A stretch of 64,000 nucleotides of DNA from Escherichia coli (GTDB lineage Bacteria; Pseudomonadota; Gammaproteobacteria; Enterobacterales; Enterobacteriaceae). Under the pieces are notes generated by a model, which did not search any database, was not told where the DNA came from, and saw nothing but the letters and a program-made list of their open reading frames with translations. The DNA lies in the NCBI RefSeq assembly GCF_009931435.1, contig NZ_CP043414.1; one strand, written 5' to 3'. A program made the position numbers and the translations under genes. Numbering within the stretch: position 1 is the stretch's first letter; the number at the start of each line of letters is the position of its first letter. Shown piece after piece: positions 14,664 to 53,793 of the stretch.

Positions 14664-14709
14664 GATTAACTCCTAAGTATAATGATTCATACCAGTAAGG
14701 TATAATATT

Positions 14710-15204: not shown

Positions 15205-15282
15205 GATCAGCTCCCTAACTACATGATGTGCCGAGCATTTAATATATACGATACATAGGTCATTAAAAAGTATGTTCTAAAT

Positions 15283-17976: not shown

Positions 17977-18002
17977 AGGCAAAGAGAAATCTTTGCCTTT
18001 TT
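17977..18002 (+). terminator. Rho-independent terminator (ggcaaaga-gaaa-tctttgcc + TTTTTT)
   Basis: Perfect 8-bp stem, tetraloop and U-tract, about 110 bp upstream of pilS. Confidence 0.6.
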
Positions 18003-18112
18003 TAATTCATCCGTCTGTCAGATAGAATTAAATATATCTTTCTATTTCTATTGCCAGATATGAGAGAAGCGTTATAACAGGAGTTATCATTAAAACAAAA
18101 AAGGAGATGATA

Positions 18113-18670
18113 ATGGTTTTATTAAATAACAAAAGAAAAGGCAAGAAAGGTTTCTCACTACTCGAGCTATTACTTGTTTTAGGCATCATTGCTGCATTAG
18201 TGGTAGCGGCTTTTATCGTTTATCCCAAGGTTCAGGCTTCACAAAGAGCACAGGCCGAATCCAATAACATTGCCACCATACAGGCAGGTGTTAAAGCGTT
18301 ATACACATCGGCTTCAAGTTTTACTGGCCTGACAAATACTGTGGCTGTTCAGGCAAAAATCTTCCCTGACAATATGTTAAGTGGGTCAGGAACGGCTGCT
18401 AAACCCATCAATGCCTTTAAAGGTAATGTGACGCTGGCTGCTACAGCTACAGGACCATCATCAGCGGCTGGCTCTTCTTTCACTATCACATACGATAATG
18501 TGCCAGCAGCGGAATGTGTGAAGATTGCGACAGCGGCAGCAGGTAATTTCTACATTACCACGGTTGGAACCAAGGTTGTTAAAGCCGCAAGAGGAACACT
18601 TGATGTGGCAGCTACGGCAGCGGCCTGTAATAACGCCACAAGTAATACATTAGTTTTCACGTCTATCTAA
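18113..18670 (+). CDS. pilS: Type IV prepilin, PilS-like major pilin (type IVb, IncI-thin-pilus-like)
   Basis: Long basic leader then G-FSLLELLLVLGIIA (prepilin peptidase motif with Glu+5); AAGGAG RBS 6 nt upstream of ATG 18113. Confidence 0.75.
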   Translation: MVLLNNKRKGKKGFSLLELLLVLGIIAALVVAAFIVYPKVQASQRAQAESNNIATIQAGVKALYTSASSFTGLTNTVAVQAKIFPDNMLSGSGTAAKPINAFKGNVTLAATATGPSSAAGSSFTITYDNVPAAECVKIATAAAGNFYITTVGTKVVKAARGTLDVAATAAACNNATSNTLVFTSI

Positions 18671-18722
18671 TGAAGAGGGCGCAGGCCCTTTTCTTTCTTA
18701 TTGCTAAAACAGGGAGATAATT

Positions 18723-20186
18723 ATGATAAAGAATAAAGGATTTACCTTACTGGAAGTCAGTATTGTGTTAGGCATTGGAACACTTATCGCTTTTATGAAG
18801 TTTCAGGATATGAGAAACAATCAGGAAGCGGTATTGGCTGATAATGTTGGAACACAGATTAAACAGCTTGGCGAAGCTGTTAACCGCTATATCAGTATTC
18901 GCTATGACAAGATTTCCACACTGTCATCATCCAACAATCAAAGTAGCGATCCGGGGCCAAGAACATGTTCGGCTGCTGGTTGTGAAATCACTTACCAGAC
19001 GTTAATTAATGAAGGTCTGTTGCCTGTCGGCTATACAGGAACTAACGCGCAAAAAGCATCTTACAAGATTGTGTTAAAGCGTTCAGGAACAGCGCCTGAT
19101 TACGTTATTAATGGTCTTATAACAACCGCTAGCCCGTGGGAAGAAGGTGGTCGTATTCGTTATGATCTATTAGGTAAAGCGGTTCAGGCGGCAGGTGTTG
19201 ATGGTGGTATGAGCAGAAACACCAAGATAGCTTCCGGCTATGGTGGTCAGTGGAGTGAGAACTCTAATAGCTACAGCAATATCACGGGTGGTGGATTGCT
19301 GGCTTACCGCGTGGGGTATAACTCTTCAATGTATTCTGTTTATCTGCGTCGTGATGGAACGTTGCCAATGACGGGTGATCTGAATCTTGGTGGGAAGAGC
19401 ATCAAAAACATCAAAGATATGACAGCATCAGGGACAACAACAACCGGAGCACTTAAGACAACGGGTAATGCGTCTGTTGCGTCAGATCTGAGTGTGGGTG
19501 GAACCTCGACCCTTAATGGTCCTGTAAATATCAACAACAACCTGAAAGTAAAATTTGATACCTATCTTAATACGCTATCAACAACAGGTCTGGCGAAGTT
19601 TGGTAGCCGTATTGCGACGAACGGACTTAATCCAAACGATCTGCCCGCTGGCTGGGCTGGCGGTGTTCGCACCTATGATTTGTATGCGTCGGGGACTGTT
19701 GGTGTTGGAACCGGTAAAACAGTTAAAGCTTACATGAACAATGCGGGTAATATTTATGCGTCAGGTAATCTTACCGCCGGGACGATAAAATCCAACGGAA
19801 CAATTGAATCAACAGGCAGAATCAAAGCAGGTGAATATCTCCACCTGAATGGTCAGGCAACGTTGAATGCGAAATGTACGCCTAATGGTTTGGTGGGACG
19901 AGACAGTACAGGTCGAGTGTTATCGTGTGTTAACGGTAAATGGCAGACAGCAAGTGGTGATGGCCTGAAAGGTATTTTTATAACGATAACAGATCAAATC
20001 TCTGGTTATAAATGCGTTATACCGAATAGTGATACTGGAACATGTGCCTGTCCGGGATCAACGTATAGTCCTCAGTTTGGTTATATATCTGGAACCCTTA
20101 TTGCAGAATATAATGAGGAGCGTTGTAGTGGTGGTAGGAATACACATTGTTATAGTAATTTCAGAAGGTTATATGCATGTCGGTAA
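18723..20186 (+). CDS. pilV: Type IV prepilin-like minor pilin/adhesin, PilV-like (487 aa)
   Basis: N-terminus MIKNKG-FTLLEVSIVLGIG (prepilin motif) followed by a large G/T/S-rich, Cys-containing domain. Confidence 0.7.
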   Translation: MIKNKGFTLLEVSIVLGIGTLIAFMKFQDMRNNQEAVLADNVGTQIKQLGEAVNRYISIRYDKISTLSSSNNQSSDPGPRTCSAAGCEITYQTLINEGLLPVGYTGTNAQKASYKIVLKRSGTAPDYVINGLITTASPWEEGGRIRYDLLGKAVQAAGVDGGMSRNTKIASGYGGQWSENSNSYSNITGGGLLAYRVGYNSSMYSVYLRRDGTLPMTGDLNLGGKSIKNIKDMTASGTTTTGALKTTGNASVASDLSVGGTSTLNGPVNINNNLKVKFDTYLNTLSTTGLAKFGSRIATNGLNPNDLPAGWAGGVRTYDLYASGTVGVGTGKTVKAYMNNAGNIYASGNLTAGTIKSNGTIESTGRIKAGEYLHLNGQATLNAKCTPNGLVGRDSTGRVLSCVNGKWQTASGDGLKGIFITITDQISGYKCVIPNSDTGTCACPGSTYSPQFGYISGTLIAEYNEERCSGGRNTHCYSNFRRLYACR

Positions 20187-20221
20187 TCTCGCTATGGATG
20201 ATTTCATAAATTACAGGTAAG

Positions 20222-20239
20222 AAGGGCCGATAGGCCCTT
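20222..20239. terminator. Hairpin between convergent pilV and Lamassu-like operon (aagggcc-gata-ggccctt)
   Basis: Perfect inverted repeat in the 60-bp convergent gap. Confidence 0.45.
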
Positions 20240-20246
20240 TCAGCTA

Positions 20247-21998
20247 TTATGAGGTTTGTAATAAAGAGAAGGCGTCATCCAATAGAATTTTCTCGCTATT
20301 GTTTATCTCTTTATTTAATAGAAATGATCTCACTGATTTTGCATTACCGATACAAATTTGTTTCGCTTTTCCTGCGAAATATTTCTTATTTATTTCATTG
20401 ATATCAAAAAGTGGATTGTCATTAATTTCGTTTTTTTTATATTCTGCTACGGTAAATAGCATTTGCTCATTATTACCAGATTCATTTCCTAAGAACTTAA
20501 AAATAAGATCTCTATTTCCAATATCTATATCTTCTTTGAATATAGCATCTAACAAAAATGGAAATTTATGGATTGTTTTTCTTTTATTGATTAATTTAAT
20601 AAAGGAAAAATGATAAGCCATGATTATTTTATGTAATTCAACCCCTTGGAAGGGGAAGGATGTAATGGAATAAAGATTTTGATACCTTGGATTATTAGGT
20701 ATTATTATCTTCAAAGCTTTTGCTTTTTCGCTGAAAATAGTTAAAAATTCCTTGTCAATGTTGTTTCGGAGAGAGTTAATTTGTGAATCTGTGAGTAGGT
20801 TGTCAATTTGGGTGTTAAGGTTTGATATTTTTTCGACATAATTAGCTTCTTTAATTTTAATATCATTTAAAATGGTGATATTTGCACGGTGATTAACCCA
20901 ATGGTCAAAGTCAATATTTTCGATTCTCGATTCTTTTAACACCTCATACTCAAGCTTTATTTTTTCACTATCGTGTTTGATCTTTCTTTCAACAGAATTT
21001 AATGATGACGAAACATTTTTAATTTCTTCAGTTATACGTTCTTTTTCTCGTAACGCATCGTTAATATCTTGAGTATAGATATATAATTGTCTAAGATCGC
21101 CGGGTAGCGTTTGTTCGCATACAGGACATGTGTCAACGCTGGGTTTTTGAAGTTTTAAATTTCGAATAGTTTGTAAAAGTACTTTTTGACGCCCACGTAA
21201 CATACTGAGTTTATTGCATAGTTTTTCATAATTAGCTTCTTCCGTAATCAGATTTTCTGCTAATATGTTGTATTTTTTTAAGTAATCAATTGCTTCCCCT
21301 TTGAATCGAGACTCTAATATCTCAGAGATTTTAAGAGAGCTATCTTTTGTTTTGTATTGAATTAATTGCTCTCTTTCATATTCAATTTGTTGTTTTTCTT
21401 TTTGCAACATATATTTTTGCAATCTGTCCGTACGATCTTTTATGCCTGCGTAGTAATCAAGGTAGTCATATTTGAAGTCTTTATAAAATCTATAATCACC
21501 TATTGATTCTCTTAGATAAACCCAACCAACAGATTGAGATATATAGAATGGCAAGAATGCAGCTTCTATCGGTGCATCAGTAAACTTAGTTTGGTTCTGT
21601 AATGTTAGATTAAAGTCAAATAAGTGGTTAAATAATTTTTTGTATCTTGCATATTCATATGAGTTATTTCCATTAATGCCATCAAACCGTAGGGGGACTC
21701 TATCATCAATGCGAACGACGAGAGTATCATCAAATCGAACAAATACAACCGTATGAGATGATTTTACTTTTATTATTTCACACTCAAGACGAAAGAGTAC
21801 TCTTTCTGTAAGAATGTCGTGCAAATTTTCTTTGGAATCATTAACACCCATTGTGTACAAAATTGATTGCATTAATGTACTTTTCCCTGATGTGTTCCTC
21901 CCGTGAATAATATTGACTGAGTCACCAAAATCAGTGCAAAAAAAACCTTTATTATTCATAGAGTATGCTAAAATGCTTTTCAGAATTAATTTAGACAT
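20247..21998 (-). CDS. SMC/Rad50-like ABC ATPase with coiled coil and CxxC hook (Lamassu LmuB-like)
   Basis: Walker A GRNTSGKST near N-terminus; long heptad-rich middle; CPVCEQ in mid-protein; start ATG 21998 with GAGGAA RBS overlaps upstream stop (ATGTCTAA). Confidence 0.65.
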   Translation of the reverse strand: MSKLILKSILAYSMNNKGFFCTDFGDSVNIIHGRNTSGKSTLMQSILYTMGVNDSKENLHDILTERVLFRLECEIIKVKSSHTVVFVRFDDTLVVRIDDRVPLRFDGINGNNSYEYARYKKLFNHLFDFNLTLQNQTKFTDAPIEAAFLPFYISQSVGWVYLRESIGDYRFYKDFKYDYLDYYAGIKDRTDRLQKYMLQKEKQQIEYEREQLIQYKTKDSSLKISEILESRFKGEAIDYLKKYNILAENLITEEANYEKLCNKLSMLRGRQKVLLQTIRNLKLQKPSVDTCPVCEQTLPGDLRQLYIYTQDINDALREKERITEEIKNVSSSLNSVERKIKHDSEKIKLEYEVLKESRIENIDFDHWVNHRANITILNDIKIKEANYVEKISNLNTQIDNLLTDSQINSLRNNIDKEFLTIFSEKAKALKIIIPNNPRYQNLYSITSFPFQGVELHKIIMAYHFSFIKLINKRKTIHKFPFLLDAIFKEDIDIGNRDLIFKFLGNESGNNEQMLFTVAEYKKNEINDNPLFDINEINKKYFAGKAKQICIGNAKSVRSFLLNKEINNSEKILLDDAFSLLQTS

Positions 21999-23079
21999 AC
22001 ATTCCTCTTGTCTCAACATATGCAGCTATTATCGCAAATGCAATCATGTGTTTTTCTAACCTTGAATTATATGTGTTAATATAAGTTTGATATAATTCAG
22101 TAATACAATCTGCTTCATCTGTATGTTTATAATCTATTTGTGTGTTTTCTGATACAAATTTATAAATCTTTTTGTATTCTACTTGTTGAAAATCTTTAAA
22201 AAAATCGAAACAGTTATCTAATAATTCTTGCGCTCTTCTTTTTATAGGGAGCTTAATTGATAATCCTTTCGCCAATTTATCTGCATGAGAACGCCAAAAG
22301 TTGAAAGCTTTTTTACTTTCTTGGAACATACTGAATGTTGCATCAATTTTTTGTTTGGTCAAACGCTTTGACCTATCTGTAAGTAAAGCATATCCAGCAT
22401 TATTATATGTTAACTCAACATCTTGCAATAAAGCCATTAGAGTTGTTATTACAGCGTCATGATCACTAACCTTACAACCTAGAACCTCAGTAGATAAACC
22501 TGTTAGCGTTCTTCTCCACCCTTTATAAGTTTGAGGAAGGTCAATGAAACTAAATTTTACATTAGAGAGTTGCTTAAAATCTGCAATTTCTCCATCTATT
22601 AGTTTTGATTGAATGTTTTCTTTGATTTCATCATGTAGATCAGAATAATTTTTAGAGATGTTTGTTACTTGTATTTTTTCTACTTTGCATTTTTTACCTT
22701 TTTCTTTCTTACCCTGAAGTATAATATTTCGATTTGTCAAGAAAGATAGAGTGTGTTTGTAATCATCAGATTTGGGGTGTTTATCGTTGATAAGTTCATT
22801 TCCAACAAGCGATATTTTTCCGATGATCTCACAAAATTTTTGATCCGTTTTCCAGTCATCTCTTGATTTTTTAGCTTGATAAGTATCAATGCGACTAATG
22901 TCACCATTTTCATCAACAAAGGCAAAAAGAAAATCTTCATGGTGTTCAACACATATAAAATAATCTAGCAATGGAGAGTTTAGTTTTTCGTAATCATCAA
23001 AAAGAAGGTATACAACACAACAACGTTGGAATGTATATCCTGAGCCTCCCTCAACTCCTGAGTTGACGCTTTCTGACAT
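21991..23079 (-). CDS. Mrr-like PD-(D/E)xK nuclease-domain protein (Lamassu LmuA-like effector, putative)
   Basis: N-terminal GYTFQ ... VEHHEDFLFAFVDENGD ... IDTYQAKK fits the Mrr-type G-x-x-FE / D / (Q/E)-x-K pattern; translationally coupled to the downstream ATPase. Confidence 0.5.
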   Translation of the reverse strand: MSESVNSGVEGGSGYTFQRCCVVYLLFDDYEKLNSPLLDYFICVEHHEDFLFAFVDENGDISRIDTYQAKKSRDDWKTDQKFCEIIGKISLVGNELINDKHPKSDDYKHTLSFLTNRNIILQGKKEKGKKCKVEKIQVTNISKNYSDLHDEIKENIQSKLIDGEIADFKQLSNVKFSFIDLPQTYKGWRRTLTGLSTEVLGCKVSDHDAVITTLMALLQDVELTYNNAGYALLTDRSKRLTKQKIDATFSMFQESKKAFNFWRSHADKLAKGLSIKLPIKRRAQELLDNCFDFFKDFQQVEYKKIYKFVSENTQIDYKHTDEADCITELYQTYINTYNSRLEKHMIAFAIIAAYVETRGMYV

Positions 23080-23348
23080 TTTTTGTTGCCCCTGTTAATC
23101 AAATCATAGCGTAAATCTATTAATACATATTTAACATTGGCTTTATGTATGAAATACGCATTCTCCTTAGCTAAAGGATATTATAAAGTGGACTAAAAAT
23201 CATCTAACACCTTGCAAAATGTGAAGTTTTTCTTCATGTAAAACTCATAAATAACGTTACTATTCTGTTAGTAACGAAATAATCGGGAAACTTGCTATTT
23301 ACGGTTTACAGGAATCTTAATCAAAGTTGTGTAAAAGTTTAATCTTAC

Positions 23349-23606
23349 TTATTGAGCAAATTCAAACTGCCTGACCATCCCATCCCGGTTAGCATCAAGA
23401 AAATCTGCCCACCACTGTAGCATTAACCTTCGCTGCTCAAGATGCTTGGCCTTATGGGTATAGGCAGCACGAACACTGTTGCTTTCCTTGTGGATCATCT
23501 GGAGTTCCACCGCATCTTCAGACCATAGCCCTGATTTAATCAGAGCACTACATGCCAGTGTGCGGAAACCATGACCAGAGATGTCCTGTGTGGTGTCATA
23601 GCCCAT
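23349..23606 (-). pseudogene. C-terminal remnant of a second P4-type tyrosine integrase
   Basis: 85-aa ORF aligns with the last ~80 residues of the adjacent intact integrase (…RxxYxHK…LxxRRxMLQWW…) but is divergent from it and lacks everything upstream. Confidence 0.6.
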
Positions 23607-23624
23607 TTATGCATTCTCTTGTTA

Positions 23625-24854
23625 TCAAGCAGCCATAGCCCTATACTTTTGCGCCTTAACGTAATCTCCCCACCATTGCATAAGCACTTCTCGCTCCCCT
23701 AAATATTCAGCTCGATTGTAGGCTGCTATGATTTCAGTGCTTTTGGTATGGGCCAATGCTGCTTCAAGAACTTCTGTTCTGAATTTGCCACTCTCTTCGG
23801 CGGCTGTTCTGGCAATAGAACGCATACCATGAGCTACCAGTTCACCACCCAACCCCATACGAATCAATGCGGCGTTGGCTGTCTGCTCATGCATGTGGGC
23901 CAATGGTGTTTTTATGCTGGGAAATACCCATTCACGATGACCGCTGATAGGCTGCATGTTTTCCAGAATGCGAAGTGCCTCTTTGCTTAATGGCACTTTA
24001 TGAGGCCGTTTCATCTTCATAAACTCTGGTGGGATGTTCCAGATTTTATTCTCTGTATCGATGTCAGCCCAACGAGCACGAACAGCCTCACCGGGGCGAA
24101 CCCATGTCAGCAGTTGCCATTCAATCAGCATACGGGTTTCCAGACGGATGGATGCGTTTGCCAGTGCAATCATAAACCGGGGGATTTCGCTTGGTGGTAA
24201 TGCTGGCATATTTTGTTTTTTGGGCTTACTGAAACGTTGACCAAGGTTGTCGGCTGGGTTGAACTCAATGAGTTCTTCTGTGGCAGCATAGCGAAAAATT
24301 TCATTCAGGCGGGAAATGATGCGACGTAGAGTTTCAAGCACACCCCGTTGTTCAATTGGGTCGAGATGCTGCTTGAGCATTTTGGGGCGGATCTCTTTGA
24401 TAGGGACATCACCCAGAGTGGGAAAGATGTTCCGTTCAAGGCTACGCCAGATGTCTTCTGCATGATCTTGGGATATACCGGAAGTCTTAATCTTTTCATC
24501 CAACCACTTTCTTGCAACAGCCTGTAGCGTGTTTTCAGTCGCATCTTTTAGTGCATTGGCTTTTTCGTTGTTATGGACTTGAGGATCGATACCGTTGGCA
24601 AGTAGGGAGAGATACTCATCCCGCAAAGTTCGTGCCTTAGCCAAGGTAAGGTGAGGGTAGGTTCCAAGACTCATTTTTGTGCGTTTTTTGGTCACTGGCA
24701 CTGAATACCTGAAATACCAGTTTTTCTTCCCTCCTTTTGTGTCTGGCGCTATGCGTAGCAGTAATCCATCTCCATCAAAGAGGTTGATTTCCTTATCGCC
24801 GGGTTTGGTATTTTTGATTTCAGTATCAGTAAGTTTTTTTGCGAGCTTTGCCAT
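23625..24854 (-). CDS. intA: P4-type tyrosine integrase (IntA-like) adjacent to ssrA
   Basis: 409 aa; C-terminal catalytic region ...VAHGMRSIARTA...ALAHT...AAYNRAEY; sits directly downstream of the tmRNA 3' end as in CP4-57. Confidence 0.9.
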   Translation of the reverse strand: MAKLAKKLTDTEIKNTKPGDKEINLFDGDGLLLRIAPDTKGGKKNWYFRYSVPVTKKRTKMSLGTYPHLTLAKARTLRDEYLSLLANGIDPQVHNNEKANALKDATENTLQAVARKWLDEKIKTSGISQDHAEDIWRSLERNIFPTLGDVPIKEIRPKMLKQHLDPIEQRGVLETLRRIISRLNEIFRYAATEELIEFNPADNLGQRFSKPKKQNMPALPPSEIPRFMIALANASIRLETRMLIEWQLLTWVRPGEAVRARWADIDTENKIWNIPPEFMKMKRPHKVPLSKEALRILENMQPISGHREWVFPSIKTPLAHMHEQTANAALIRMGLGGELVAHGMRSIARTAAEESGKFRTEVLEAALAHTKSTEIIAAYNRAEYLGEREVLMQWWGDYVKAQKYRAMAA

Positions 24855-25018: not shown

Positions 25019-25381
25019 TGGTGGAGCTGGCGGGAGTTGAACCCGCGTCCGAAATTCCTACATCCTCGGTACTACATGCTTAGTCAGTCTTTACATTCGC
25101 TTGCCAGCTGCGGACGGACACGCCACTAACAAACTAGCCTGATTAAGTTTTAACGCTTCAACCCCAGGCAGGGCTTCCACGCGATCTCTTTTGGGTTTGA
25201 CCTCTCTTGATCCCCGTCCTAAGAGCGGAGGCTAGGGAGAGAGGGCTCTAAGCAGGTTATTAAGCTGCTAAAGCGTAGTTTTCGTCGTTTGCGACTATTT
25301 TTTGCGGCTTTTTACGAGGCCAACCGCCCCTCGGCATGCACCTTGGGTTTCGCAAATCCCGTCGAATCCAGAATCAGCCCC
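25019..25381 (-). ncRNA. ssrA: tmRNA (SsrA), 363 nt
   Basis: Reverse complement reads GGGGCUGAUUCUGGAUUCGACGGG ... GCAAACGACGAAAACUACGCUUUAGCAGCUUAA (tag reading frame) ... GGUUCAACUCCCGCCAGCUCCACCA. Confidence 0.97.
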
Positions 25382-43141: not shown

Positions 43142-43172
43142 ATAAAAAAGGCCCCCCGGTTTGGGAGGCCTT
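43142..43172 (-). terminator. pheL-pheA attenuator terminator
   Basis: GC hairpin plus U-tract (minus strand: ggcctcccaaaccggggggcc ttttttatt) between pheL and pheA. Confidence 0.8.
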
Positions 43173-43218
43173 ATTGTTCGTCTTCGCATTCTGTTTCACA
43201 CGACGAAACGCCTCCCAT

Positions 43219-43266
43219 TCAGGGGAAGGTAAAAAAGAATGCGAAGAAAAACGGCGTGTGTTTCAT
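43219..43266 (-). CDS. pheL: pheA leader peptide PheL (MKHTPFFFAFFFTFP)
   Basis: 15-codon ORF with seven Phe codons immediately upstream of the attenuator. Confidence 0.9.
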   Translation of the reverse strand: MKHTPFFFAFFFTFP

Positions 43267-43349
43267 GTTTGTTTCCTTAGGTGACTTCAGTACAGTACCC
43301 GTACTGTTTTCTCGCTGTCAACAAAAAACGCGCCCGAAGGTGCGTTGTA

Positions 43350-43433: not shown

Positions 43434-44456
43434 TTATGTGGATGAAATGTGGATGCCTCCTTTTAACGGATTAAGTGAAATTGCATCCTGGAGGAAATCA
43501 GGAGCGAGGTGCGCATAGGTCATAGTTTGCTGGATCGTGGCGTGCCCCATAATTCGCTGGAGCGTAAGTATATTTCCTCCATTAATCATAAAGTGAGCAG
43601 CAAAGGTATGGCGTAGAACATGTACAGCCTGTCCTTTTGGTAGGTCTGGCTTAACACTGCGAAGCACCTTGCGATATTCCTCATAATTGACGTCAAACAA
43701 AAGGCCGGATTTCTTTGTTTTGATCTCACTAACAACTTCATCAGAGACAGGAATAATTCGAACTTTTCCGTTTTTAGTTTTGTTAAACGTCACGCGATTA
43801 TTGATGATGTGTTCCGCGCGCAGATTTTTCGCTTCTCCCCATCTCGCCCCAGTACTGAGACAAAGTAGCGTAATCCGCCGGGCATCACCGCTTACTGCAT
43901 CCAGTAATTTGGCGATTTCTTCCATGGTGAGATACGTCATTTCGGGTGATTTTCGTTTCAAAGAGGGGAGGGCGCGGAGCGGATTTTCTCCGTGAAATTC
44001 CCCGGCATTTGCCAGGAGTGTAAACATTCCTCCGAGATCCGACTCATCACGCCGAACAGTAGACTCTTTTACTCCCAAAGATAAACGGGAGCTTCGATAA
44101 GCGGCCATGAAACGAGCATTAATCTGGCTAACCCTTGGATCATTCATTTCTTTGATGATTTTTTTCAACCTGGTTAGAACGCCGTTAGCATATGGCTTAT
44201 TGCGTCCACCCAATTCCCACCATAACGGAAGCAGATCTGAGAGATGACGTTGCTCTGTTGGCTTTTCAAGCCATTCCTTATCGTGCATGTGGCTGAGAAC
44301 ATAACGCTCAAAGGCCACTGCATCTGCCTTTTTCTTAAAAATCCGCTGAATCCGACGTCCACTTCGGCCACGCGGTCTAACATCCACTTTATACCGTCCA
44401 CCATCGAGCGCTTTAATTGCCATTGGCAAGCCCTCCGGTGAAACGAGGAAAGACAT
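43434..44456 (-). CDS. int: Phage tyrosine integrase (P2-type)
   Basis: 340 aa; catalytic region ...HVLRHTFAAHFMINGGNILTLQRIMGHATIQQTMTYAHL (R-H-x-x-R...Y). Confidence 0.9.
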   Translation of the reverse strand: MSFLVSPEGLPMAIKALDGGRYKVDVRPRGRSGRRIQRIFKKKADAVAFERYVLSHMHDKEWLEKPTEQRHLSDLLPLWWELGGRNKPYANGVLTRLKKIIKEMNDPRVSQINARFMAAYRSSRLSLGVKESTVRRDESDLGGMFTLLANAGEFHGENPLRALPSLKRKSPEMTYLTMEEIAKLLDAVSGDARRITLLCLSTGARWGEAKNLRAEHIINNRVTFNKTKNGKVRIIPVSDEVVSEIKTKKSGLLFDVNYEEYRKVLRSVKPDLPKGQAVHVLRHTFAAHFMINGGNILTLQRIMGHATIQQTMTYAHLAPDFLQDAISLNPLKGGIHISST

Positions 44457-44489: not shown

Positions 44490-44792
44490 TTAGCCAATTT
44501 TCCTTTCGGATGGGGGTAAGTCCGTTGGCTCTTGCCCATAGTGTGCGAGAGCCGGAGCTATCTGCCCGGATTCAGGCGCAATTTTCCCAGTCATAAACCA
44601 CAACGCATATTTCTCAAATCTGGGGTTGTTTAGTATTTGCTCAATTACTTCAGCATTAGGGATAGTTTTACCGCTTTCATATCTCCACAGAGCATCACGG
44701 TTTAAACCAAGCATTTTTGCTGTATCCGGGAGGCTAGTAAGTCTCTCGCTTTCACGCATGATTTTTATGCGCTCTCCAATAGTCATACGCAT
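44490..44792 (-). CDS. Phage immunity repressor (C/CI-like, XRE-type HTH)
   Basis: Product MRMTIGERIKIMRESERLTSLPDTAKMLGLNRDALWRYESGKT; divergent from the cox-like gene. Confidence 0.75.
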   Translation of the reverse strand: MRMTIGERIKIMRESERLTSLPDTAKMLGLNRDALWRYESGKTIPNAEVIEQILNNPRFEKYALWFMTGKIAPESGQIAPALAHYGQEPTDLPPSERKIG

Positions 44793-44887
44793 GTTGCAAT
44801 TCTCCAACGTCTGTATTAATGTTTATACAAATGAGTTTGATTTGGGGCATCCGTCGCAAGAAATACCCCAAACAGGGAGATTATCAC
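44793..44887. promoter_or_regulatory. Lysis-lysogeny switch region (face-to-face repressor and early promoters expected)
   Basis: ~95-bp gap between divergent repressor and cox-like genes, as in P2/186. Confidence 0.5.
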
Positions 44888-46967: not shown

Positions 46968-47230
46968 CCATTCTGGACTACATCGCTACTCATCCGGGGT
47001 GTAGCGGCGGAGAGATCGCCGCAGCACTGAATACTCCAACCACAGCCATTAATGCTGAGTTACGCCAACTTTGGCGCGGCGGCTTAGTCATCAGAACAAA
47101 CCGCAGCACAGGTGGTCGCGCTCGCAAAACTGGAGGCCAGGCTTCTTACCACGTAAACCCGATGCCGTTCGGGTGTAGCAATCCACTTACTCACATGTTT
47201 AACCAGCTACTGAAGGAAGCCAGAACATGA
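46964..47230 (+). CDS. Hypothetical small protein, possible winged-helix DNA-binding (88 aa)
   Basis: Translationally coupled small ORF. Confidence 0.45.
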   Translation: MTILDYIATHPGCSGGEIAAALNTPTTAINAELRQLWRGGLVIRTNRSTGGRARKTGGQASYHVNPMPFGCSNPLTHMFNQLLKEART

Positions 47231-47526
47231 GCACCATCAACCACCAGAAGCTACGCGAACTGGCATTTGCCCTGCAACGAATGGCAACACCTCAAAAATT
47301 ACTGGCATTTCGCGCAATGCTCTCGCCGTCTGCTGTGCTGGCACTGCTGGATGAGCTGGAGCACGCCAGAACCATGGCTCCAGCCATTCGCCTGACGCTC
47401 CATCATGAAATCGCTGATTTCTGCGCACCACTGGGTTCGCCTGGTGAACCAGAAACGCCGGAAACAATGCAACGAGAGCTACTGCAACGCATCGACAAGG
47501 TTTTTGATTTTTTCCTTAACCAGTAA
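47227..47526 (+). CDS. Hypothetical phage protein (99 aa)
   Basis: Translationally coupled small ORF. Confidence 0.45.
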   Translation: MSTINHQKLRELAFALQRMATPQKLLAFRAMLSPSAVLALLDELEHARTMAPAIRLTLHHEIADFCAPLGSPGEPETPETMQRELLQRIDKVFDFFLNQ

Positions 47527-47537
47527 AGGACCGCGAT

Positions 47538-47750
47538 ATGAACAAAAAGACCTGGTTTCGCGCATACATGTGGGCGCTGGTATGCGTCCTCGTTTCTCTC
47601 ATTCTGTATGTGGGGCTACTTCCCAGAATGATTTCATCAGACAGCTCCTTCCTGGTATTGCTGGGCATTTTTGTCGCCTTGCTGTACCCGGCGGGCGTTG
47701 TTCGCTTTTTCAGTAACTACATCAAAGCAATTATGGAAACCAAACAATGA
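47538..47750 (+). CDS. Small membrane protein (70 aa, two hydrophobic helices)
   Basis: WALVCVLVSLILYVGLL and FLVLLGIFVALLYPAGVV segments; stop overlaps next start. Confidence 0.5.
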   Translation: MNKKTWFRAYMWALVCVLVSLILYVGLLPRMISSDSSFLVLLGIFVALLYPAGVVRFFSNYIKAIMETKQ

Positions 47751-48571
47751 AAAAACTATTACCACTCATCCCTCTCCTGATGACCACACTTCTGGTTGGC
47801 TGTGACCGCGTGGAGCCGGGCAATGTAGGCATCAAAGTCAACAAACTGGGCGACGATAAAGGCGTCGGTGAAGTAGTTGGCGTTGGCCGCTACTGGACAG
47901 GCTGGAATACAGAGGTTTACATCTTCCCGACTTTCAAACAAATGAAGACTTACGATGAGCCGTTCAACTTCCAGATGAGTGACGGCACAACCATCGGCTA
48001 TCACATCGGCGTGGCCTACAAAGTTGATCCATCCAAAGTTACCACTGTGTTTCAGACCTACCGCAAAGGCGTGGATGACATTACCGACACTGACCTGCGC
48101 CAGAAGATCGCCGATGCACTCAACCGACTGGCCAGCAAAATGACCACCGATAAGTTTATCGACGGTGGCAAGTCTGAACTGCTGGATTCAGCACTTAAAG
48201 ACATTCAGTCAGAAATGACACCTATCGGCATTCAGGTCATGAGCCTCTCTTATGTCGGTAAACCGGAATATCCGCCAACCGTTATCGACAGCATTAACGC
48301 CAAAGTCACGGCAAACCAGAAAACCCTGCAACGCGAACAGGAAGTCAAGCAACGCGAAGCAGAAGCCAACATGTTGCGCGCAGAAGCTGCCGGACAGGCT
48401 GATGCCATTCGCACAAAAGCCCAGGCTGAAGCCGACGCCATTCGTTTACGCGGTGAAGCTCTGCGCCAGAATCCCGGCGTTATGGAGCTGGAAGCAATCA
48501 ACAAATGGAACGGCACGCTGCCGCAATACATGACCAGCAACACCGCTGTTCCGTTTGTTCCGGTGAAGTAA
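47747..48571 (+). CDS. SPFH/band-7 (prohibitin/HflC-like) domain lipoprotein
   Basis: Lipobox LLVGC; central band-7-like region; C-terminal Ala/Glu/Gln-rich coiled coil (REQEVKQREAEANMLRAEAAGQADAIRTKAQAEADAIR). Confidence 0.65.
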   Translation: MKKLLPLIPLLMTTLLVGCDRVEPGNVGIKVNKLGDDKGVGEVVGVGRYWTGWNTEVYIFPTFKQMKTYDEPFNFQMSDGTTIGYHIGVAYKVDPSKVTTVFQTYRKGVDDITDTDLRQKIADALNRLASKMTTDKFIDGGKSELLDSALKDIQSEMTPIGIQVMSLSYVGKPEYPPTVIDSINAKVTANQKTLQREQEVKQREAEANMLRAEAAGQADAIRTKAQAEADAIRLRGEALRQNPGVMELEAINKWNGTLPQYMTSNTAVPFVPVK

Positions 48572-48577
48572 TTAAAC

Positions 48578-48623
48578 CCGGCCAGTGAAAATCGCTGGCC
48601 GGAGCAGTATCAGGATTTTTTTT
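48578..48623 (+). terminator. Hairpin (ccggccag-N9-ctggccgg) with distal T8 tract after the SPFH gene
   Basis: 8-bp perfect stem; U-tract starts 13 nt after the stem so terminator function is uncertain. Confidence 0.4.
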
Positions 48624-48741
48624 AGTATGCCGTTCTCACAAAAAAACCGCTTGCCATGCCGCAATCAGTCAGGTTACATTTCCGCTGCACCTCATAAAAC
48701 GGGTGCCGGGTTTCGCAGCCTGCTGACAACCAAAGCGCACA

Positions 48742-48761
48742 ACCGCGCCAGCGGTTTTTTT
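48742..48761 (+). terminator. Rho-independent terminator (accgc-gcca-gcggt + T7) in a non-coding gap
   Basis: Stem, tetraloop and U-tract; flanked by cgcaca/tgtgcg outer complement. Confidence 0.55.
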
Positions 48762-48802
48762 GTGCGTACTGTATTGCCACGTCTTTTTCGCACACGAATT
48801 AT

Positions 48803-48878
48803 GGCGGGGCGTACGGGGCCGACTTCGGTCGGGCCGGGTTCTTTGGTTGCCGGTACTGCGAACCCCGTACGTCTCGCC
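48803..48878 (+). ncRNA. Candidate structured RNA: 16-bp stem (14 Watson-Crick + 2 G-U on the plus-strand transcript) enclosing a UUCG-tetraloop hairpin
   Basis: ggcggggcgtacgggg pairs with ccccgtacgtctcgcc; inner ccgac-TTCG-gtcgg; the two G-U pairs would be C-A mismatches on the opposite strand. Confidence 0.35.
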
Positions 48879-48940
48879 ACCCACAGTTTCGCAGCTCTGG
48901 ATGGTGAGTTTTCAAAACTTACAACCAAAGAGGCTACACC

Positions 48941-49171
48941 ATGGCAAACCGCAAACAGCACCGCGCTATCGCGGAGCGTCGTCACATCCAGACTGAAATC
49001 AACCGCAGACTTTCCCGCGCATTCCGCGTCGCTAAAATCATGCACATCAATATGCTGCATGAGCGTAGCTGCGAACTTTCAAACCTCTACTCATCCGCTG
49101 TTTTCAGTTATCTGGCGGATGATCTGCGCGAGCTTCAGCAGCTCATCCAGCAGCAAAACAAACTCCATTAA
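48941..49171 (+). CDS. Hypothetical small basic protein (76 aa)
   Basis: ORF preceding the replication gene. Confidence 0.4.
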   Translation: MANRKQHRAIAERRHIQTEINRRLSRAFRVAKIMHINMLHERSCELSNLYSSAVFSYLADDLRELQQLIQQQNKLH

Positions 49172-49243
49172 TTCCTGTTCCGGGCCTTTCCTGCACCTTG
49201 CGGCGGGAGGCCTTCGCACATCTGTAACAAGAGGATTGCCGCA

Positions 49244-49609
49244 ATGATTCTCGCCAACGACTTTCTTGAATACCTGCTCAACACAGAGCGTGATCTTGCC
49301 GCTCGCGTGCGTGATCGTTATGACATGTACCTGAAATCCCTGCCTGTACCGCAGCTCGCTGACGGAAAGATTGTTATTGATGGTCGCTACATGATTGACA
49401 GCCACGAGGGAAATTACAGGCTTTCCCGCATTGAAGGTGGCACCCCGTCCGTTATTGGCATTTACCAGCGCCCATCCTCTGCAATCGTCGATGTGATTGC
49501 CGACAGCATCCGCATCACACATCGCCATGCCGACACAGAAGACACCGTGCTGGAAATTCAGCGGCTGGCTACAGTCTGCCGCGACACCCTGAATGGCATG
49601 ACGAAGTAA
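49244..49609 (+). CDS. Hypothetical phage protein (121 aa)
   Basis: ORF immediately upstream of rep. Confidence 0.5.
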   Translation: MILANDFLEYLLNTERDLAARVRDRYDMYLKSLPVPQLADGKIVIDGRYMIDSHEGNYRLSRIEGGTPSVIGIYQRPSSAIVDVIADSIRITHRHADTEDTVLEIQRLATVCRDTLNGMTK

Positions 49610-49615
49610 ATCACT

Positions 49616-52438
49616 ATGACGGCAGAGTACATCAGGGACTGGCAACAACCGCGCCACGCAGTGGGGCGTGAAGGAACGGGGATCCCCGCTCCTGAATCCG
49701 CGCTTTCCTCCTGGCTGGATGCCTACCGGGTAGAGAACGAGCGCCGCCAGGAAATGGCTGATGCGGCGTTCTCCGCCACGCCGCTGGGCAACCTGATTAA
49801 TAAAAGCCTGGACGCACAGGAAAAACAGGACAAAACCATCACACTGGCAGGAGACGCCAGAAAACAGGCACGCGGCGCAGTGGATGAAGCCATGACCTCG
49901 CTGCGCCTGCTGCCGTCCTATCTGCGCGATCCGCTTATTCGCCACCTCTCCTTCCTGCGCAAAAAACAGGAAGCCGATCGCCGGAAAGGCAAAAAGAGCT
50001 GGCAGGCGGAACGCTATGCACGCGGAACCCTGCGCAAAATATTCGAACGTCTGGACCGCACCGATCACCGCTGGCTGACACCGGGTTATCGCTCCCTTGC
50101 CGGACGCGAACGCCTGGACGATTTGCTTTACCTGCCGCAGCTCAACAAACACCAGATACAGACGCTGGCCACCATGACGGCGGCGATGTTCAGCAGCACC
50201 TTCGAAAAACTCTGCGATGGCTTTGGCGCGACTGATGGCGAACTGACCATGGATGTAACGCTGAAGGCGTATCAGATGCTGGCCCGCATGGCGTTACACC
50301 TGCACGCCATGCCTCCACATTATGACGCACTGACAACAGACAAAGACCGGAGGAACGAACCGGACACAGAGCTGCTGCCGGGCGCAATCCTTCGCCTGAC
50401 CTGTGCGGAATGGTGGAAACGCAAACTGTGGCTGTTACGTTGCGAGTGGCGGGAAGAACAACTCCGCGCCGCCTGTCTGGTTTCCAGAAAAACATCGCCC
50501 TATCTGAGCCAGGACGCGTTAAGCGAGTTTCGCGCACAGCGCGAGAAAACACGCGATTTCCTGAAAAGTTTCATGCTGGAAAACGAAGACGGGTTCACGA
50601 TTGATCTCGAGACAGTGTATTACGCGGGAGTAAGTAACCCGGTTCACCGTAAGGCAGAAATGATGGCCACCATGAAGGGACTGGAACTTCTGGCCGAAGC
50701 CCGTGGCGACAGAGCGGTGTTTCTGACTGTCACCTGCCCGTCAAAATACCACGCAACAACGGAGAACGGTCATCCGAACCCCAAATGGAACGGGGCCACC
50801 ATGCGCGACTCCAGCGATTACCTGGTTAACACGTTTTTTGCGGCGGTCCGCAAAAAACTGAACCGCGACGGCCTGCGCTGGTATGGCATCCGCACGGTGG
50901 AGCCTCACCATGACGGCACCGTGCACTGGCATATGATGGTCTTTGCTCATCCGGAAGAAATCGACAGCATCGTGGCCATCACCCGCGATATTGCCATTCA
51001 GGAAGACCGCCACGAGCTGGGCAATGATATTACTCCGCGCTTTAAAGTGGAGTATGTCGACGGCTCAAAAGGCACACCAACCAGCTATATCGCGACCTAC
51101 ATCGGGAAAAACCTGGACAGCCGCGCCGTGGATGGCATCGACCCGAAAACGGGCAAACCACGCGTTGACCACGAAACCGGAAAGTCAATGGCCGAGAGCG
51201 TGGAACGCGCCATCGGCTGGGCGCGCCTTCACCGTGTCCGCCAGTTCCAGTTCTTTGGTATCCCCTCCCGTCAGGTGTGGCGTGAACTGCGTCGCCTTGC
51301 CAGCCAGATGGCACGCAACCCGGAAGGCCCGCAACAGCTGAAGGATGACGCAATGGATGCGGTACTCGCTGCCGCTGATGCCGGATGTTTTGCCACCTAC
51401 ATAGAGAAACAGGGCGGCGTTCTTGTTCCACGCAAAGACTACCTGATTCGCACCGCCTACGACCTCGCAGATGAGCTGAACGATTACGGCGAACAGAGCG
51501 TACAGATTTACGGGATCTGGTCGCCACTCATCGGGGAATCCTCCCGTGTGTGCACGCATCCGGATAACTGGAAGCTGGTAAGACGTAAACCGGAAACGGA
51601 AGACAGCGCCCGCGAAAATGGTTTTGACCTTCAGGGCGGCCCTGCCGCCCCTTGGACTCGTGGCAATAACTGTCCCCGTGTACAGGAAACGGACAACAAC
51701 GGGACAGAACAGCCGGAAGAACGGCCAGCACCGTGGCCGCAGCTTCCTGACAGCGTTGACGTGAATGAATGGATGCGCTCACTGAAACGGCACGAACGCC
51801 GGGCGCTGATGCGTTCGCTGCGTGACAAACAGGCAAAAAACAGCAGTGATGAAATGCAGAACTGGACACAGAGCCGCAAACAGCCACGGCCTTTGCCTGA
51901 TAACCACGAGTTACTCGCTAAAGAATGGCGGGAGTCTGCTGAATCTCTCGGCCTGCATATTGGTGAACAGCAGATGCAGCACCTGTTACGGGGCGGCAGT
52001 CTGTACGTTGACGGCAGCATCATTGCACCGCAGGGATTTGAAATTGTACGCAAACCGGATACCCGCCCGGACAGCCGAATCACGCAGCTCTGGCAGCGCC
52101 TGAGCCGTAATCACGGCGTAAGCAGCACGGGGATCCGCCATAACCCGGTCGCCAGCTATCTGGAACAGCTGGGGGCATCAGACCCCGAAGCCGCCGCACG
52201 CCTGGCATCCACACTTCAGCAGGACCAGAACACCATGAAAACCCCCGTTACCGTGCTTTCTGACATGCTGCGCGCCATCCGTGACGCAGAGCACGCACAG
52301 AGAATCAGTGAAACAACTGAACGCGCCCGCCGCAAAGCAGACCTGCTGCGGGGTGGCCTGACCAGTGGAAACAAAAAACAGACAAAAACAGGATTCACAA
52401 ATCCCGTAAATGAGCAAAAAACGCGCCGTGATATATGA
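49616..52438 (+). CDS. Phage replication initiation protein (P2 gpA-family rolling-circle endonuclease), 940 aa
   Basis: HUH-type motif region VEPHHDGTVHWHMMVF; position after the early operon. Confidence 0.8.
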   Translation: MTAEYIRDWQQPRHAVGREGTGIPAPESALSSWLDAYRVENERRQEMADAAFSATPLGNLINKSLDAQEKQDKTITLAGDARKQARGAVDEAMTSLRLLPSYLRDPLIRHLSFLRKKQEADRRKGKKSWQAERYARGTLRKIFERLDRTDHRWLTPGYRSLAGRERLDDLLYLPQLNKHQIQTLATMTAAMFSSTFEKLCDGFGATDGELTMDVTLKAYQMLARMALHLHAMPPHYDALTTDKDRRNEPDTELLPGAILRLTCAEWWKRKLWLLRCEWREEQLRAACLVSRKTSPYLSQDALSEFRAQREKTRDFLKSFMLENEDGFTIDLETVYYAGVSNPVHRKAEMMATMKGLELLAEARGDRAVFLTVTCPSKYHATTENGHPNPKWNGATMRDSSDYLVNTFFAAVRKKLNRDGLRWYGIRTVEPHHDGTVHWHMMVFAHPEEIDSIVAITRDIAIQEDRHELGNDITPRFKVEYVDGSKGTPTSYIATYIGKNLDSRAVDGIDPKTGKPRVDHETGKSMAESVERAIGWARLHRVRQFQFFGIPSRQVWRELRRLASQMARNPEGPQQLKDDAMDAVLAAADAGCFATYIEKQGGVLVPRKDYLIRTAYDLADELNDYGEQSVQIYGIWSPLIGESSRVCTHPDNWKLVRRKPETEDSARENGFDLQGGPAAPWTRGNNCPRVQETDNNGTEQPEERPAPWPQLPDSVDVNEWMRSLKRHERRALMRSLRDKQAKNSSDEMQNWTQSRKQPRPLPDNHELLAKEWRESAESLGLHIGEQQMQHLLRGGSLYVDGSIIAPQGFEIVRKPDTRPDSRITQLWQRLSRNHGVSSTGIRHNPVASYLEQLGASDPEAAARLASTLQQDQNTMKTPVTVLSDMLRAIRDAEHAQRISETTERARRKADLLRGGLTSGNKKQTKTGFTNPVNEQKTRRDI

Positions 52439-52514: not shown

Positions 52515-53474
52515 ATGAAAATTTGTATCGACGACGGATCCACCAACATCAAGCTGGCATGGACTGAGAACGGCGAACGCCGCAACGCCATCAGCCCGAA
52601 CAGCTTCAAGTCAGAATGGTCTGCGCCGTTCGGTGGCACGCAGCCCGCGAACTACATGCTTGATGGCGTGCGCTATGGTTTTGATCCGGTCAGCGATCGC
52701 TTTGTCCAGACGACCGACACGCAATACCAGTACAGCGATGTGAATGTCATTGCCATTCATCATGCGCTGGTCAAATCAGGCATCACGCCACAGGAGGTGG
52801 ATGTGGTTGTCACCCTGCCACTGAGCGAGTATTTCGACACAAACGCACAGCCGGACATGGCCAACATCAACCGCAAAAAAGCGAACGTTATGCGCCCGGT
52901 GGAGTACCAGAACGGCGAGGCATTCACTATCCGTAACGTGCGGGTTATGCCTGAATCCATTCCGGCTGGCTTTAAAGCACTGGCTGACATGAGTCCGTTT
53001 GAATCCCTGCTGATTGTGGATTTGGGCGGAACCACGCTGGATGTGGCAAAGGTTCAGGGGCAACTGGCAGGTATCAGCCAGGTGTTTTGCGATCCACACG
53101 TAGGCGTTTCCCTGATGGCCGATGCCGTACTGTCGGTAATGGCCACTAACGGTATGCGCACCAGTCACCACATCGCCAATACCATTATCGAACATCGCCA
53201 CGATGAAGCCTGGCTGCGCCAGCACATCCACAATAACGCACATTACGCCAGCCTGATGGCTGTTATTCGTGAAAAGGAAGAAACACTGAAACAACGCGTG
53301 ATCCGCGCGCTGGCGGGTTTTTCGGGTTACGGGCGGGTGATGGTTGTAGGTGGAGGGGCAGAGATTGTGGCACCCGCTATCCGCGAAGCCTGCGGAGTTA
53401 ATGCGACTTTCATCGCGGACGGGGTGCCACAGTTTGCTCTGGTTAATGGGCTGTACGCAATGGACAAGGAGTAA
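52515..53474 (+). CDS. parM: ParM/StbA actin-like segregation ATPase
   Basis: Colinear similarity to plasmid R1 ParM: IDDGSTNIKL, ISPNSFK, YSDVNVIAIHHAL, RKKAN, VMPESIPAG, LLIVDLGGTTLD, GGGAE, LVNGLY. Confidence 0.85.
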   Translation: MKICIDDGSTNIKLAWTENGERRNAISPNSFKSEWSAPFGGTQPANYMLDGVRYGFDPVSDRFVQTTDTQYQYSDVNVIAIHHALVKSGITPQEVDVVVTLPLSEYFDTNAQPDMANINRKKANVMRPVEYQNGEAFTIRNVRVMPESIPAGFKALADMSPFESLLIVDLGGTTLDVAKVQGQLAGISQVFCDPHVGVSLMADAVLSVMATNGMRTSHHIANTIIEHRHDEAWLRQHIHNNAHYASLMAVIREKEETLKQRVIRALAGFSGYGRVMVVGGGAEIVAPAIREACGVNATFIADGVPQFALVNGLYAMDKE

Positions 53475-53478
53475 ATCA

Positions 53479-53793
53479 ATGACGACACCAACCAGACGGA
53501 TAAGTTTCTATCTGAAGCCCGCCGTCGTCAAGAGCGAACGGGAGGCGTGCAGTTACCTCGACAGCCTGCCAGCCTCCGAACGCAGCCGCGCACAACGCGC
53601 GGCTTTTCTGGCCGGACTGGCTCTTATAAAACGCACCCCCGCGTTGGCGTATTCGCTGGCAGAATGGTCAGAAGACGAAATACGGATGCCACCGCTACCA
53701 GTACAGCCTGAAAAACCGGCGCAACCAGCAGCAGACAGCGCCCCCCATATGCAGCAGGTGAAAAAGAATATTCAGGCGTTTTTCCCGAAGTGA
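53479..53793 (+). CDS. parR: ParR/StbB-like centromere-binding protein
   Basis: N-terminus RRISFYLKPAV...SYLDSLPASERSRAQRAAFLAGLALIKRTP resembles R1 ParR; immediately follows parM. Confidence 0.7.
   Translation: MTTPTRRISFYLKPAVVKSEREACSYLDSLPASERSRAQRAAFLAGLALIKRTPALAYSLAEWSEDEIRMPPLPVQPEKPAQPAADSAPHMQQVKKNIQAFFPK

Follow-up and report, generated by a model that had tools for sequence, protein, structure and literature searches.

A mobile two-gene module of an SPFH lipoprotein and a two-helix membrane protein in a P88-like prophage of Escherichia coli

We analyzed a stretch of 64,000 nucleotides of the Escherichia coli contig NZ_CP043414.1 (hereafter, the window) and found that its P2-like prophage carries a mobile two-gene phage envelope module, which is the same module as gp19-gp20 of coliphage N4. 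The first gene encodes a two-helix predicted inner-membrane protein of 70 amino acids (47538..47750, plus strand), hereafter the partner, which was recognized from its open reading frame (ORF), its hydrophobic segments and its match to phrog_1130 and is a homologue of N4 gp19. The second gene starts with ATG and encodes an SPFH/Band-7 lipoprotein of 274 amino acids (47747..48571, plus strand), which was characterized from its ORF with Pfam, PHROG, AlphaFold2 and Foldseek and is a homologue of N4 gp20 and of gp12 of Escherichia phage P88. The lipid-anchored SPFH protomer and the co-translated two-helix partner constitute an evolutionary unit. We tentatively propose that the pair acts as a conditional membrane guard during lytic growth, a role to which we attach a probability of about one in three.

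The closest relative of the prophage is phage P88 (Peduoviridae, Xuanwuvirus), and the SPFH gene is located in the rightward early operon, between cox and replication gene A. The pair (47538-48571) is 100% identical to the one of E. coli strain 89-3156, where RefSeq labels the two products 'hypothetical protein' and 'SPFH domain-containing protein'.

Architecture of the SPFH lipoprotein

An earlier reading of the window made from its letters (the sequence-only reading) had described a 274-amino-acid lipoprotein with a prohibitin/HflC-like core and a long Ala/Glu/Gln-rich coiled coil, much larger than typical early-region products. The ORF is present exactly as described, with the lipobox LVGC, and the early ORFs around it encode only ~40-136 amino acids. 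The Band_7/SPFH domain (Pfam PF01145) was detected over residues 21-207 (E=5.8e-31; 108.3 bits relative to a gathering cut-off of 23.6), and the whole protein matches the PHROG family phrog_200 'lipoprotein' (E=3.8e-111). The ratio of nonsynonymous to synonymous substitution rates (dN/dS) of the SPFH gene is 0.04-0.07, which indicates very strong purifying selection.

We modeled the monomer with AlphaFold2 using an alignment of 111 sequences, and the model presents a mean predicted local distance difference test score (pLDDT) of 92.5. The model starts with a signal helix, followed by the SPFH alpha/beta core (residues 19-174; 47801..48268, plus strand), a coiled-coil-type helix of 65 residues (residues 177-241; 48275..48469, plus strand), a short helix (residues 243-253) and a flexible tail. 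The Ala/Glu/Gln/Arg-rich stretch at residues 186-245 (A13 Q7 R7 E7 of 60) is part of the single modeled helix, in agreement with the coiled coil of the sequence-only reading. The C-terminal tail (residues 253-274; 48503..48568, plus strand) was delimited from alignments by the motif K-W-N-G-x-L-P ... P-F-x-x-V-K. The most conserved residues of the family are found in this tail (K-W-N/D-G-x-L-P), outside of the SPFH core: Trp254 and Gly256 are invariant and Pro259 is conserved at 90% or more across the 111 aligned sequences. The tail presents a low pLDDT in the monomer model and, if solved cages are taken as a guide, it may be the part that builds the apex of a cage.

Comparing the model to the PDB with Foldseek yielded full-length matches (probability 1.0; ~16% identity; about 250-300 columns) to HflC, HflK, prohibitin-1/2, erlin-1/2, stomatin, flotillin and QmcA (8z5g), with HflC/HflK chains as the top matches. 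All of these are cage-forming SPFH proteins. Among solved structures, the family profile was nearest to prohibitin-1 (4e-10), then to HflK (2e-7), HflC and QmcA, and prohibitin-1 and HflK belong to the exoplasm-facing SPFH clade, the one closest to the family. These results confirm the prohibitin/HflC-like core. As modeled, the mature lipoprotein possesses a complete cage-protomer architecture (SPFH core, long helix, short helix and C-terminal tail), in which a lipobox replaces the N-terminal transmembrane helix or hairpin as the membrane anchor.

The signal peptide, the lipobox L-V-G-C and the Asp at position +2 were read directly from the sequence (47747..47806, plus strand). The N-terminus is MKKLLPLIPLLMTTLLVGC followed by DR, with Cys19 encoded at 47801-47803 and the Asp at +2 encoded at 47804-47806. 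The segment MKKLLPLIPLLMTTL-LVGC corresponds to a positively charged, hydrophobic signal peptide with a lipobox and fits the pattern [LVI][ASTVI][GAS]C. Of the 101 representatives with a locatable N-terminal motif, 83 have the lipobox Cys; C-D-R is present in 92 of the 97 close homologues with a recognizable motif, and 77 of 80 viral loci encode Asp at +2. In E. coli, Asp at +2 is reportedly a Lol-avoidance signal (the +2 rule; Yamaguchi et al. 1988; Seydel et al. 1999), and the lipoprotein should therefore remain anchored in the outer leaflet of the inner membrane and expose its SPFH domain to the periplasm, on the same side as HflK/C.

HflK/HflC-FtsH and mitochondrial prohibitin are the closest solved relatives by both profile and fold; they share the protomer architecture and the non-cytoplasmic face of an energy-transducing membrane that is predicted for the window protein. 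The main alternative to the membrane guard is that the protein mimics HflK/C: the phage cage would capture or compete for the host FtsH, with the two-helix partner providing membrane contacts, and would alter the turnover of CII-type regulators, small phage membrane proteins, SecY/YccA or LpxC. This would agree with the best profile matches (prohibitin-1, HflK and HflC, which are AAA-protease scaffolds of the same exoplasmic orientation), with the top Foldseek matches, and with the spread of the family across phyla, as FtsH is universal. Moreover, the pair of lambdoid phages is found in the leftward early operon near int/xis, and the leftward early operon of lambda also carries the FtsH inhibitor cIII. 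The same speculation was made in two genome papers (PMC8540360, PMC10269572). However, the protein scores far below the thresholds of the HflC equivalog (TIGR01932; 26.4 bits vs a cut-off of 134.4) and of the HflK equivalog (TIGR01933; 22.6 bits vs 159.4), and both assignments were rejected. Identity to HflK/C is only ~16%, the HflK/HflC heteromer is replaced by a single SPFH gene with a 70-amino-acid non-SPFH mini-partner, and a lipid anchor is found where HflK has an N-terminal transmembrane helix. In addition, the family is carried by obligately lytic phages without a known CII-type switch. We consider that an FtsH-directed mimic is unlikely.

Two further assignments were discarded. Several phage records label homologues 'serine protease', but the Pfam search gave no protease domain; this label probably stems from the old name of COG0330, 'membrane protease subunit'. 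No defence family of PADLOC-DB 2.0 was matched at E<=0.1 by the lipoprotein or by the partner, and an assignment to one of these defence systems was rejected.

A co-translated partner with two helices

The stop codon of the partner gene (TGA) overlaps the start codon of the lipoprotein gene by four nucleotides (ATGA at 47747-47750). As the sequence-only reading had proposed, the lipoprotein gene is, judging from this overlap, translationally coupled to the gene of a small two-helix membrane protein. The partner matches phrog_1130 'membrane protein' (E=2e-21) and presents two hydrophobic helices whose flanking charges suggest an N-in/C-in topology. Residues 28-36 form a conserved loop, L-P-R-M-I-S-S-D-S. 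In the alignment of partners, whose overall identity is 20-49%, Pro29 is invariant and Ser33, Gly43 and Pro51 are near-invariant. The partner gene also evolves under purifying selection (dN/dS of 0.22-0.27).

Operons that associate an SPFH gene and the gene of a small membrane protein, occasionally fused, are known in the SPFH-NfeD systems, such as QmcA-YbbJ and YqiK-YqiJ of E. coli. In contrast to these systems, the partner of the window has no NfeD/OB-fold domain: NfeD (PF01957) gave no Pfam match at E<=0.1 and 70 amino acids leave no room for it, and we rejected an NfeD partner. The window SPFH protein is also predicted to be periplasmic, whereas QmcA and YqiK face the cytoplasm.

We searched for the same arrangement in viral loci of IMG/VR (L014-L093, n=80). 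In 76 of the 80 loci, the lipoprotein gene immediately follows the gene of a two-helix partner with the loop P-x-(L/M)-(I/V)-S, and in most of them the two genes overlap by 4 nt. Among the four other loci, one copy is frameshifted, one lies at a contig end and two were not caught by the scan, although one of these two has a partner. The pair is also found in N4 itself (gp19 'membrane protein' and gp20 'lipoprotein'; gp19 loop L-P-S-M-V-S), in Shigella virus Moo19, in Burkholderia phage phiE125 and on distant metagenomic phage contigs, whose partners present the loops L-P-H-L-I-S and L-P-G-L-I-S. In phage phiP27, an unannotated two-helix ORF of 62 amino acids (locus L003, 3753-3941) overlaps the start of L05 by ATGA, and the partner gene is probably missing from many other phage annotations. 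Remoter phages vary at the partner position: phiCbK encodes a three-helix protein of 116 amino acids, phage TL a protein of 72 amino acids with one C-terminal helix, and phiEa104 a protein of 73 amino acids with no helix.

These comparisons indicate that N4 gp19 and gp20, P88 gp11 and gp12, and PHROG 1130 and 200 are the same module, in which the gene of a ~65-amino-acid protein with two transmembrane helices and the loop L-P-x-(M/L)-(I/V)-S (commonly L-P-x-L-I-S) overlaps the start of the SPFH lipoprotein gene. The window lipoprotein and P88 gp12 share 99% identity over residues 17-274; identity to the protein of the N4-like phage Moo19 annotated 'similar to N4 gp20' is ~66%. Relative to N4, the module differs only in its surroundings: here it is a cassette inserted into a temperate P2-like early operon, and in N4 it belongs to the early/middle region of a lytic podophage.

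We further observed in-frame fusions of partner and lipoprotein with a lipobox in 17 of 150 representatives of clusters defined at 50% identity, and 14 of these 17 fusions carry the loop motif, so that at least 14 lineages have fused the pair. A further fusion, P0001, is enterobacterial. Fusions with a retained lipobox Cys include P0001, P0124, P0130, P0136 and P0139. The order of the segments in the fusions is consistent with the predicted topology, in which helix 1 would run in-to-out, helix 2 back out-to-in and the signal peptide in-to-out again, leaving the SPFH domain outside. If signal peptidase II still cleaves them, these fusions would be self-separating polyproteins.

The partners are 62-78 amino acids long, with two helices, a predicted N-in/C-in topology and a charged C-terminus. 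Class II holins and pinholins resemble them in size and topology. The holin-like partner and the periplasmic cage could accordingly serve to set the time of permeabilization or to buffer the load of phage membrane proteins, resulting in a longer productive period, as in lysis inhibition; N4 itself shows a long and unexplained lysis inhibition (PMC12642591). However, the pair was never found in a lysis cassette among the loci that we examined. The rapid-lysis mutants of N4 map to gp61, gp63, the virion RNA polymerase gene and the terminal repeats rather than to gp19 or gp20, and the lysis cassette of N4 reproduces lysis inhibition on its own (PMC12642591). A function in lysis timing or in membrane-load buffering therefore appears very unlikely.

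A precise insertion in the early operon

The sequence-only reading had raised the question of whether the gene is an insertion. We observed that the homology of three close relatives (vB_EcoM-569R5, P884B11 and PhiR44_2) extends to position 47526 and resumes at position 48637, with 18 bp in between (BLASTN). Position 47526 corresponds to the stop codon of an Ead/Ea22-like gene, which marks the left edge of the cassette. Because these relatives hold 18 bp between the same junctions, the window and P88 contain an insertion of 1,110 bp relative to empty-site relatives. This cassette (47527..48636, plus strand), whose limits were defined from BLASTN breakpoints and junction alignments, is present or absent among close relatives. 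Besides the two genes, it includes a leader of 11 nt, in which a Shine-Dalgarno-like AAGGA is found, and a tail of 65 nt. Its GC-content is 50.6%, relative to 47.7% for the left flank and 56.5% for the right flank. Even more sequence is missing around the site in phages 520873 and Chuche than in the empty relatives (BLASTN).

Citrobacter phage Shae_phiSM carries other cargo between the same boundaries (578 bp with the same right boundary; locus L004, 3757-4334), namely the gene of an unrelated helix-turn-helix protein of 183 amino acids with matches to HTH_11 and HTH_24. This suggests that the slot behaves as a hotspot for accessory genes in the early operon of Xuanwuvirus. The gene thus represents an insertion rather than a universal gene of the lineage; its presence throughout the lineage together with a documented role in the phage cycle was looked for among the relatives and was not found.

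The end of the cassette contains a 3' hairpin and a U8 run (48578..48623, plus strand) with a predicted folding energy of -24.4 kcal/mol (z = -3.3), both of which are conserved in P88. The GC-rich stem of 11 bp lies at 48578-48602 and the U8 run at 48616-48623. With 13 nt between the stem and the U run, the structure does not qualify as a canonical intrinsic terminator, and the terminator scan did not call it.

No sigma-70-like promoter was detected in 47200-47750 with a consensus scan, a crude approach that could miss an internal promoter, and the only sigma-70-like sites nearby are those of the downstream isrK and C4. The spacer between the preceding early gene and the cassette is only 11 nt long. 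With no detectable promoter of its own, the pair is expected to be expressed along with the early genes of the lytic cycle. Relative to the usual definition of a moron, the cassette displays presence or absence at a precise site, while a promoter of its own was not found by the consensus scan.

These observations bear on one of the two functions that the sequence-only reading had suggested, lysogenic conversion, in which a surface- or vesicle-exposed prophage lipoprotein would alter the envelope or the virulence of the host. In favor of this reading, Stx2 prophages of pathogenic E. coli frequently carry the pair. A prophage of Pasteurella multocida also encodes an SPFH protein, the HflK/C-like Pmorf0222, possibly a member of the same subfamily. 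Pmorf0222 is released in outer-membrane vesicles and triggers Toll-like receptor 1/2 (TLR1/2) signaling, and its deletion attenuates virulence; this virulence factor is the only phage SPFH protein with experimental data that we found (PMC9872710). Against lysogenic conversion, the cassette is embedded in a repressed early operon, 11 nt behind an early gene, with no promoter-like site in or before it by the consensus scan, and the Asp at +2 speaks against export to the outer membrane in E. coli. Furthermore, homologous pairs are maintained in the strictly lytic phages N4, Moo19, phiCbK and phiEa104. We therefore regard lysogenic conversion as highly improbable.

Distribution and exchange between phages

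The gene was found in 392 of 5,426 complete E. coli genomes (7%), with at most three copies per genome and with 34 copies located on plasmids. Of 50,697 phage records, 406 gave a tblastn match to the lipoprotein. The obligately lytic carriers include N4-like Schitoviridae, LUZ24-like Bruynoghevirus, the Felix-O1-like Ounavirinae phage phiEa104, myoviruses of 145-150 kb, phiCbK, Myxococcus phage Mx1, crAss-like phages and Lak megaphages. A P1 variant and phage records of 106-108 kb carry the gene as well. The presence of the phage SPFH gene has been described as sporadic within Bruynoghevirus (PMC8540360). An exhaustive search of cluster representatives retrieved 2,869 clusters with E<=1e-3, of which 217 reached E<=1e-30. 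The pair lies among early/middle genes in every case examined, including N4, TL, phiEa104, phiCbK and phiP27, and was never found in lysis or structural modules among these loci.

The coding sequence of the mature lipoprotein (about 47792-48538) presents ~91-92% DNA identity to the lambdoid phage phiP27 and to many Stx2 phages, which further supports its insertion in the P2-like prophage. In phiP27 and the Stx2 phages, the homologue is located near int/xis and is labeled 'serine protease' or 'lipoprotein'. The partner of phiP27 is only ~21-26% identical to the window partner. The same contrast was observed for the 80 IMG/VR loci, with identities of up to 95-97% for the mature lipoprotein, ~20% for the partner and ~35% for the signal peptide. 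Because dS between the lipoprotein genes is 0.64, this contrast cannot reflect a difference in evolutionary rates and it implies recombination at the junction of the signal peptide and lipobox (47747-47806 in the window). We infer from these sequences that the lipoprotein genes of co-resident prophages are probably being homogenized while old, backbone-specific alleles of the partner persist.

A candidate role as a membrane guard

Our preferred reading is that the pair would protect or reorganize the membrane as a conditional guard in lytic growth. The pair would be expressed at the onset of the lytic program. The lipoprotein would assemble into a ring or a dome, as all SPFH proteins of solved structure do, and this dome would fence off a patch of the inner membrane containing the partner, with the conserved tails at its apex. 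Given the predicted N-in/C-in topology, the conserved loop would be the only periplasmic part of the partner and thus its likely contact with the lipoprotein. The guard would keep the inner membrane sealed and energized against attack at the membrane level during lytic development, whether from the entry of superinfecting phage DNA, from depolarizing abortive-infection effectors or from the premature triggering of lysis.

Several observations are consistent with this proposal. The pair is accessory, mobile and located in a hotspot, and it is predicted to be expressed early and to be periplasmic. In N4 and Moo19, the pair adjoins a P22 gp17-like gene annotated 'superinfection exclusion'. Two papers also link SPFH proteins to tolerance of membrane stress (PMC10434171, PMC8581546).

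The other function suggested by the sequence-only reading, superinfection exclusion at the membrane, is possible and would be one of the tasks of a membrane guard. A more specific version is that a periplasmic SPFH dome blocks the entry of competitor genomes or membrane attack and constitutes the exclusion system of N4, with the partner acting as an adaptor; a study of 2025 reported that the superinfection-exclusion system of N4 is still unidentified (PMC12642591). We consider this version rather doubtful. If true, a dome that blocks competitors would represent a new, structurally defined and very widespread class of superinfection exclusion or membrane guard. T4 Imm/Sp, P1 Sim and T5 Llp are likewise small, early envelope products (inner-membrane, periplasmic or lipoprotein) that are non-essential and accessory, but they present no sequence or fold relationship to the pair. 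Their distribution is narrow, whereas the window family is highly conserved and found in phages of many phyla.

Other observations weigh against a membrane guard. Classical superinfection-exclusion proteins are usually narrowly distributed and fast-evolving, and both the low dN/dS of the SPFH gene (0.04-0.07) and its spread across phyla are unusual for such proteins. Neither protein matches a PADLOC defence model. Outside enterobacteria, the residue at +2 is mostly Ser or Thr, and retention in the inner membrane cannot be extrapolated to these proteins from the +2 rule of E. coli. The oligomer and the contact with the partner are proposed by analogy, the structure model being that of a monomer, and the crude promoter scan leaves room for an internal promoter. 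The literature up to 2026 holds no experiment on any member of the family; genome papers have called the role of phage SPFH proteins unclear (PMC8540360, PMC13239085), and the HflK/C-like protein of the Pasteurella prophage was reported in outer-membrane vesicles (PMC9872710).

Neighboring features of the window

The region to the right of the cassette contains a P1 immI-like module within the P2-like early operon (48651-49171). This module comprises isrK (48687-48761; 65.9 bits) with a sigma-70-like promoter at 48651-48680, the C4 antisense RNA (48797-48884; 87.1 bits) with a sigma-70-like promoter at 48774-48802, and a 'Derepression' protein of 76 amino acids (PF25738; 48941-49171). The region is part of the backbone of all close Xuanwuvirus relatives, including those without the SPFH pair, and we therefore rejected the possibility that the pair and isrK/C4/'derepression' form a single cassette. 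An ORF of 205-220 amino acids overlies isrK, C4 and the derepression gene in the window (48585-49247) and in two other loci (L002, 4276-4893; L005, 3354-3971). This ORF is labeled 'hypothetical protein' or 'transcriptional regulator' in several phage records, while the Prokaryotic Genome Annotation Pipeline (PGAP) calls an 'ash family protein' pseudogene instead; the ORF overlying the RNA genes is probably spurious.

The prophage integrase (43434-44456) and the C-type repressor (44490-44807) are both encoded on the minus strand, cox begins at 44819 and replication gene A spans 49616-52438. Directly after gene A, we identified a ParM-type segregation ATPase and a partition protein (52515-53793), as in P88 and its relatives; this partition system is plasmid-like, which is unusual for a P2-like phage that integrates. 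The phenylalanine leader pheL (43142-43267; Rfam, 131 bits) and pheA are located ~170 bp from the integrase gene, which indicates that the P88-like prophage sits immediately beside the pheA operon. Further away, the transfer-messenger RNA (tmRNA) gene ssrA was found on the minus strand at 25019-25381 (tag ANDENYALAA). It adjoins an 18-kb stretch of low GC-content (32-44%; about 6000-24000), which probably represents an ssrA-associated genomic island unrelated to the prophage.

Prior knowledge and significance

The sequence of the pair was already on record, both in RefSeq and as gp11/gp12 of phage P88, and Pfam and PHROG catalog the family. In the literature on SPFH or prohibitin proteins in connection with prophages, defence, superinfection exclusion or N4 gp19/gp20, we found speculation in genome notes and one study of Pasteurella virulence, and no functional work; a comparative paper on jumbo phages makes no mention of SPFH. 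Genome papers describe the role of phage SPFH proteins as unclear or speculate that it concerns lysogeny (PMC8540360, PMC10269572, PMC13239085). The gene itself being already annotated, the value of our analysis lies in its framing: the recognition of a two-gene module with a loop motif, its in-frame fusions, its link to N4 gp19-gp20, the exact boundaries of the cassette with natural empty-site controls, and the mosaic junction at the signal peptide.

Structurally, SPFH proteins (prohibitins, stomatins, flotillins and HflK/C) are now understood to be membrane cages, yet most of their functions are debated. Our results indicate that phages maintain a minimal, lipid-anchored version of these proteins along with a dedicated partner of ~65 amino acids, in lytic as well as temperate phages of many bacterial phyla. 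The clean insertion of 1.1 kb relative to isogenic 'empty' relatives constitutes a natural experiment, and N4 gp19-gp20 offers a genetically tractable model. Solving the role of the pair could explain a very common accessory gene of phages, and the pair could offer a simple two-component system to study how an SPFH cage selects or controls its membrane clients.

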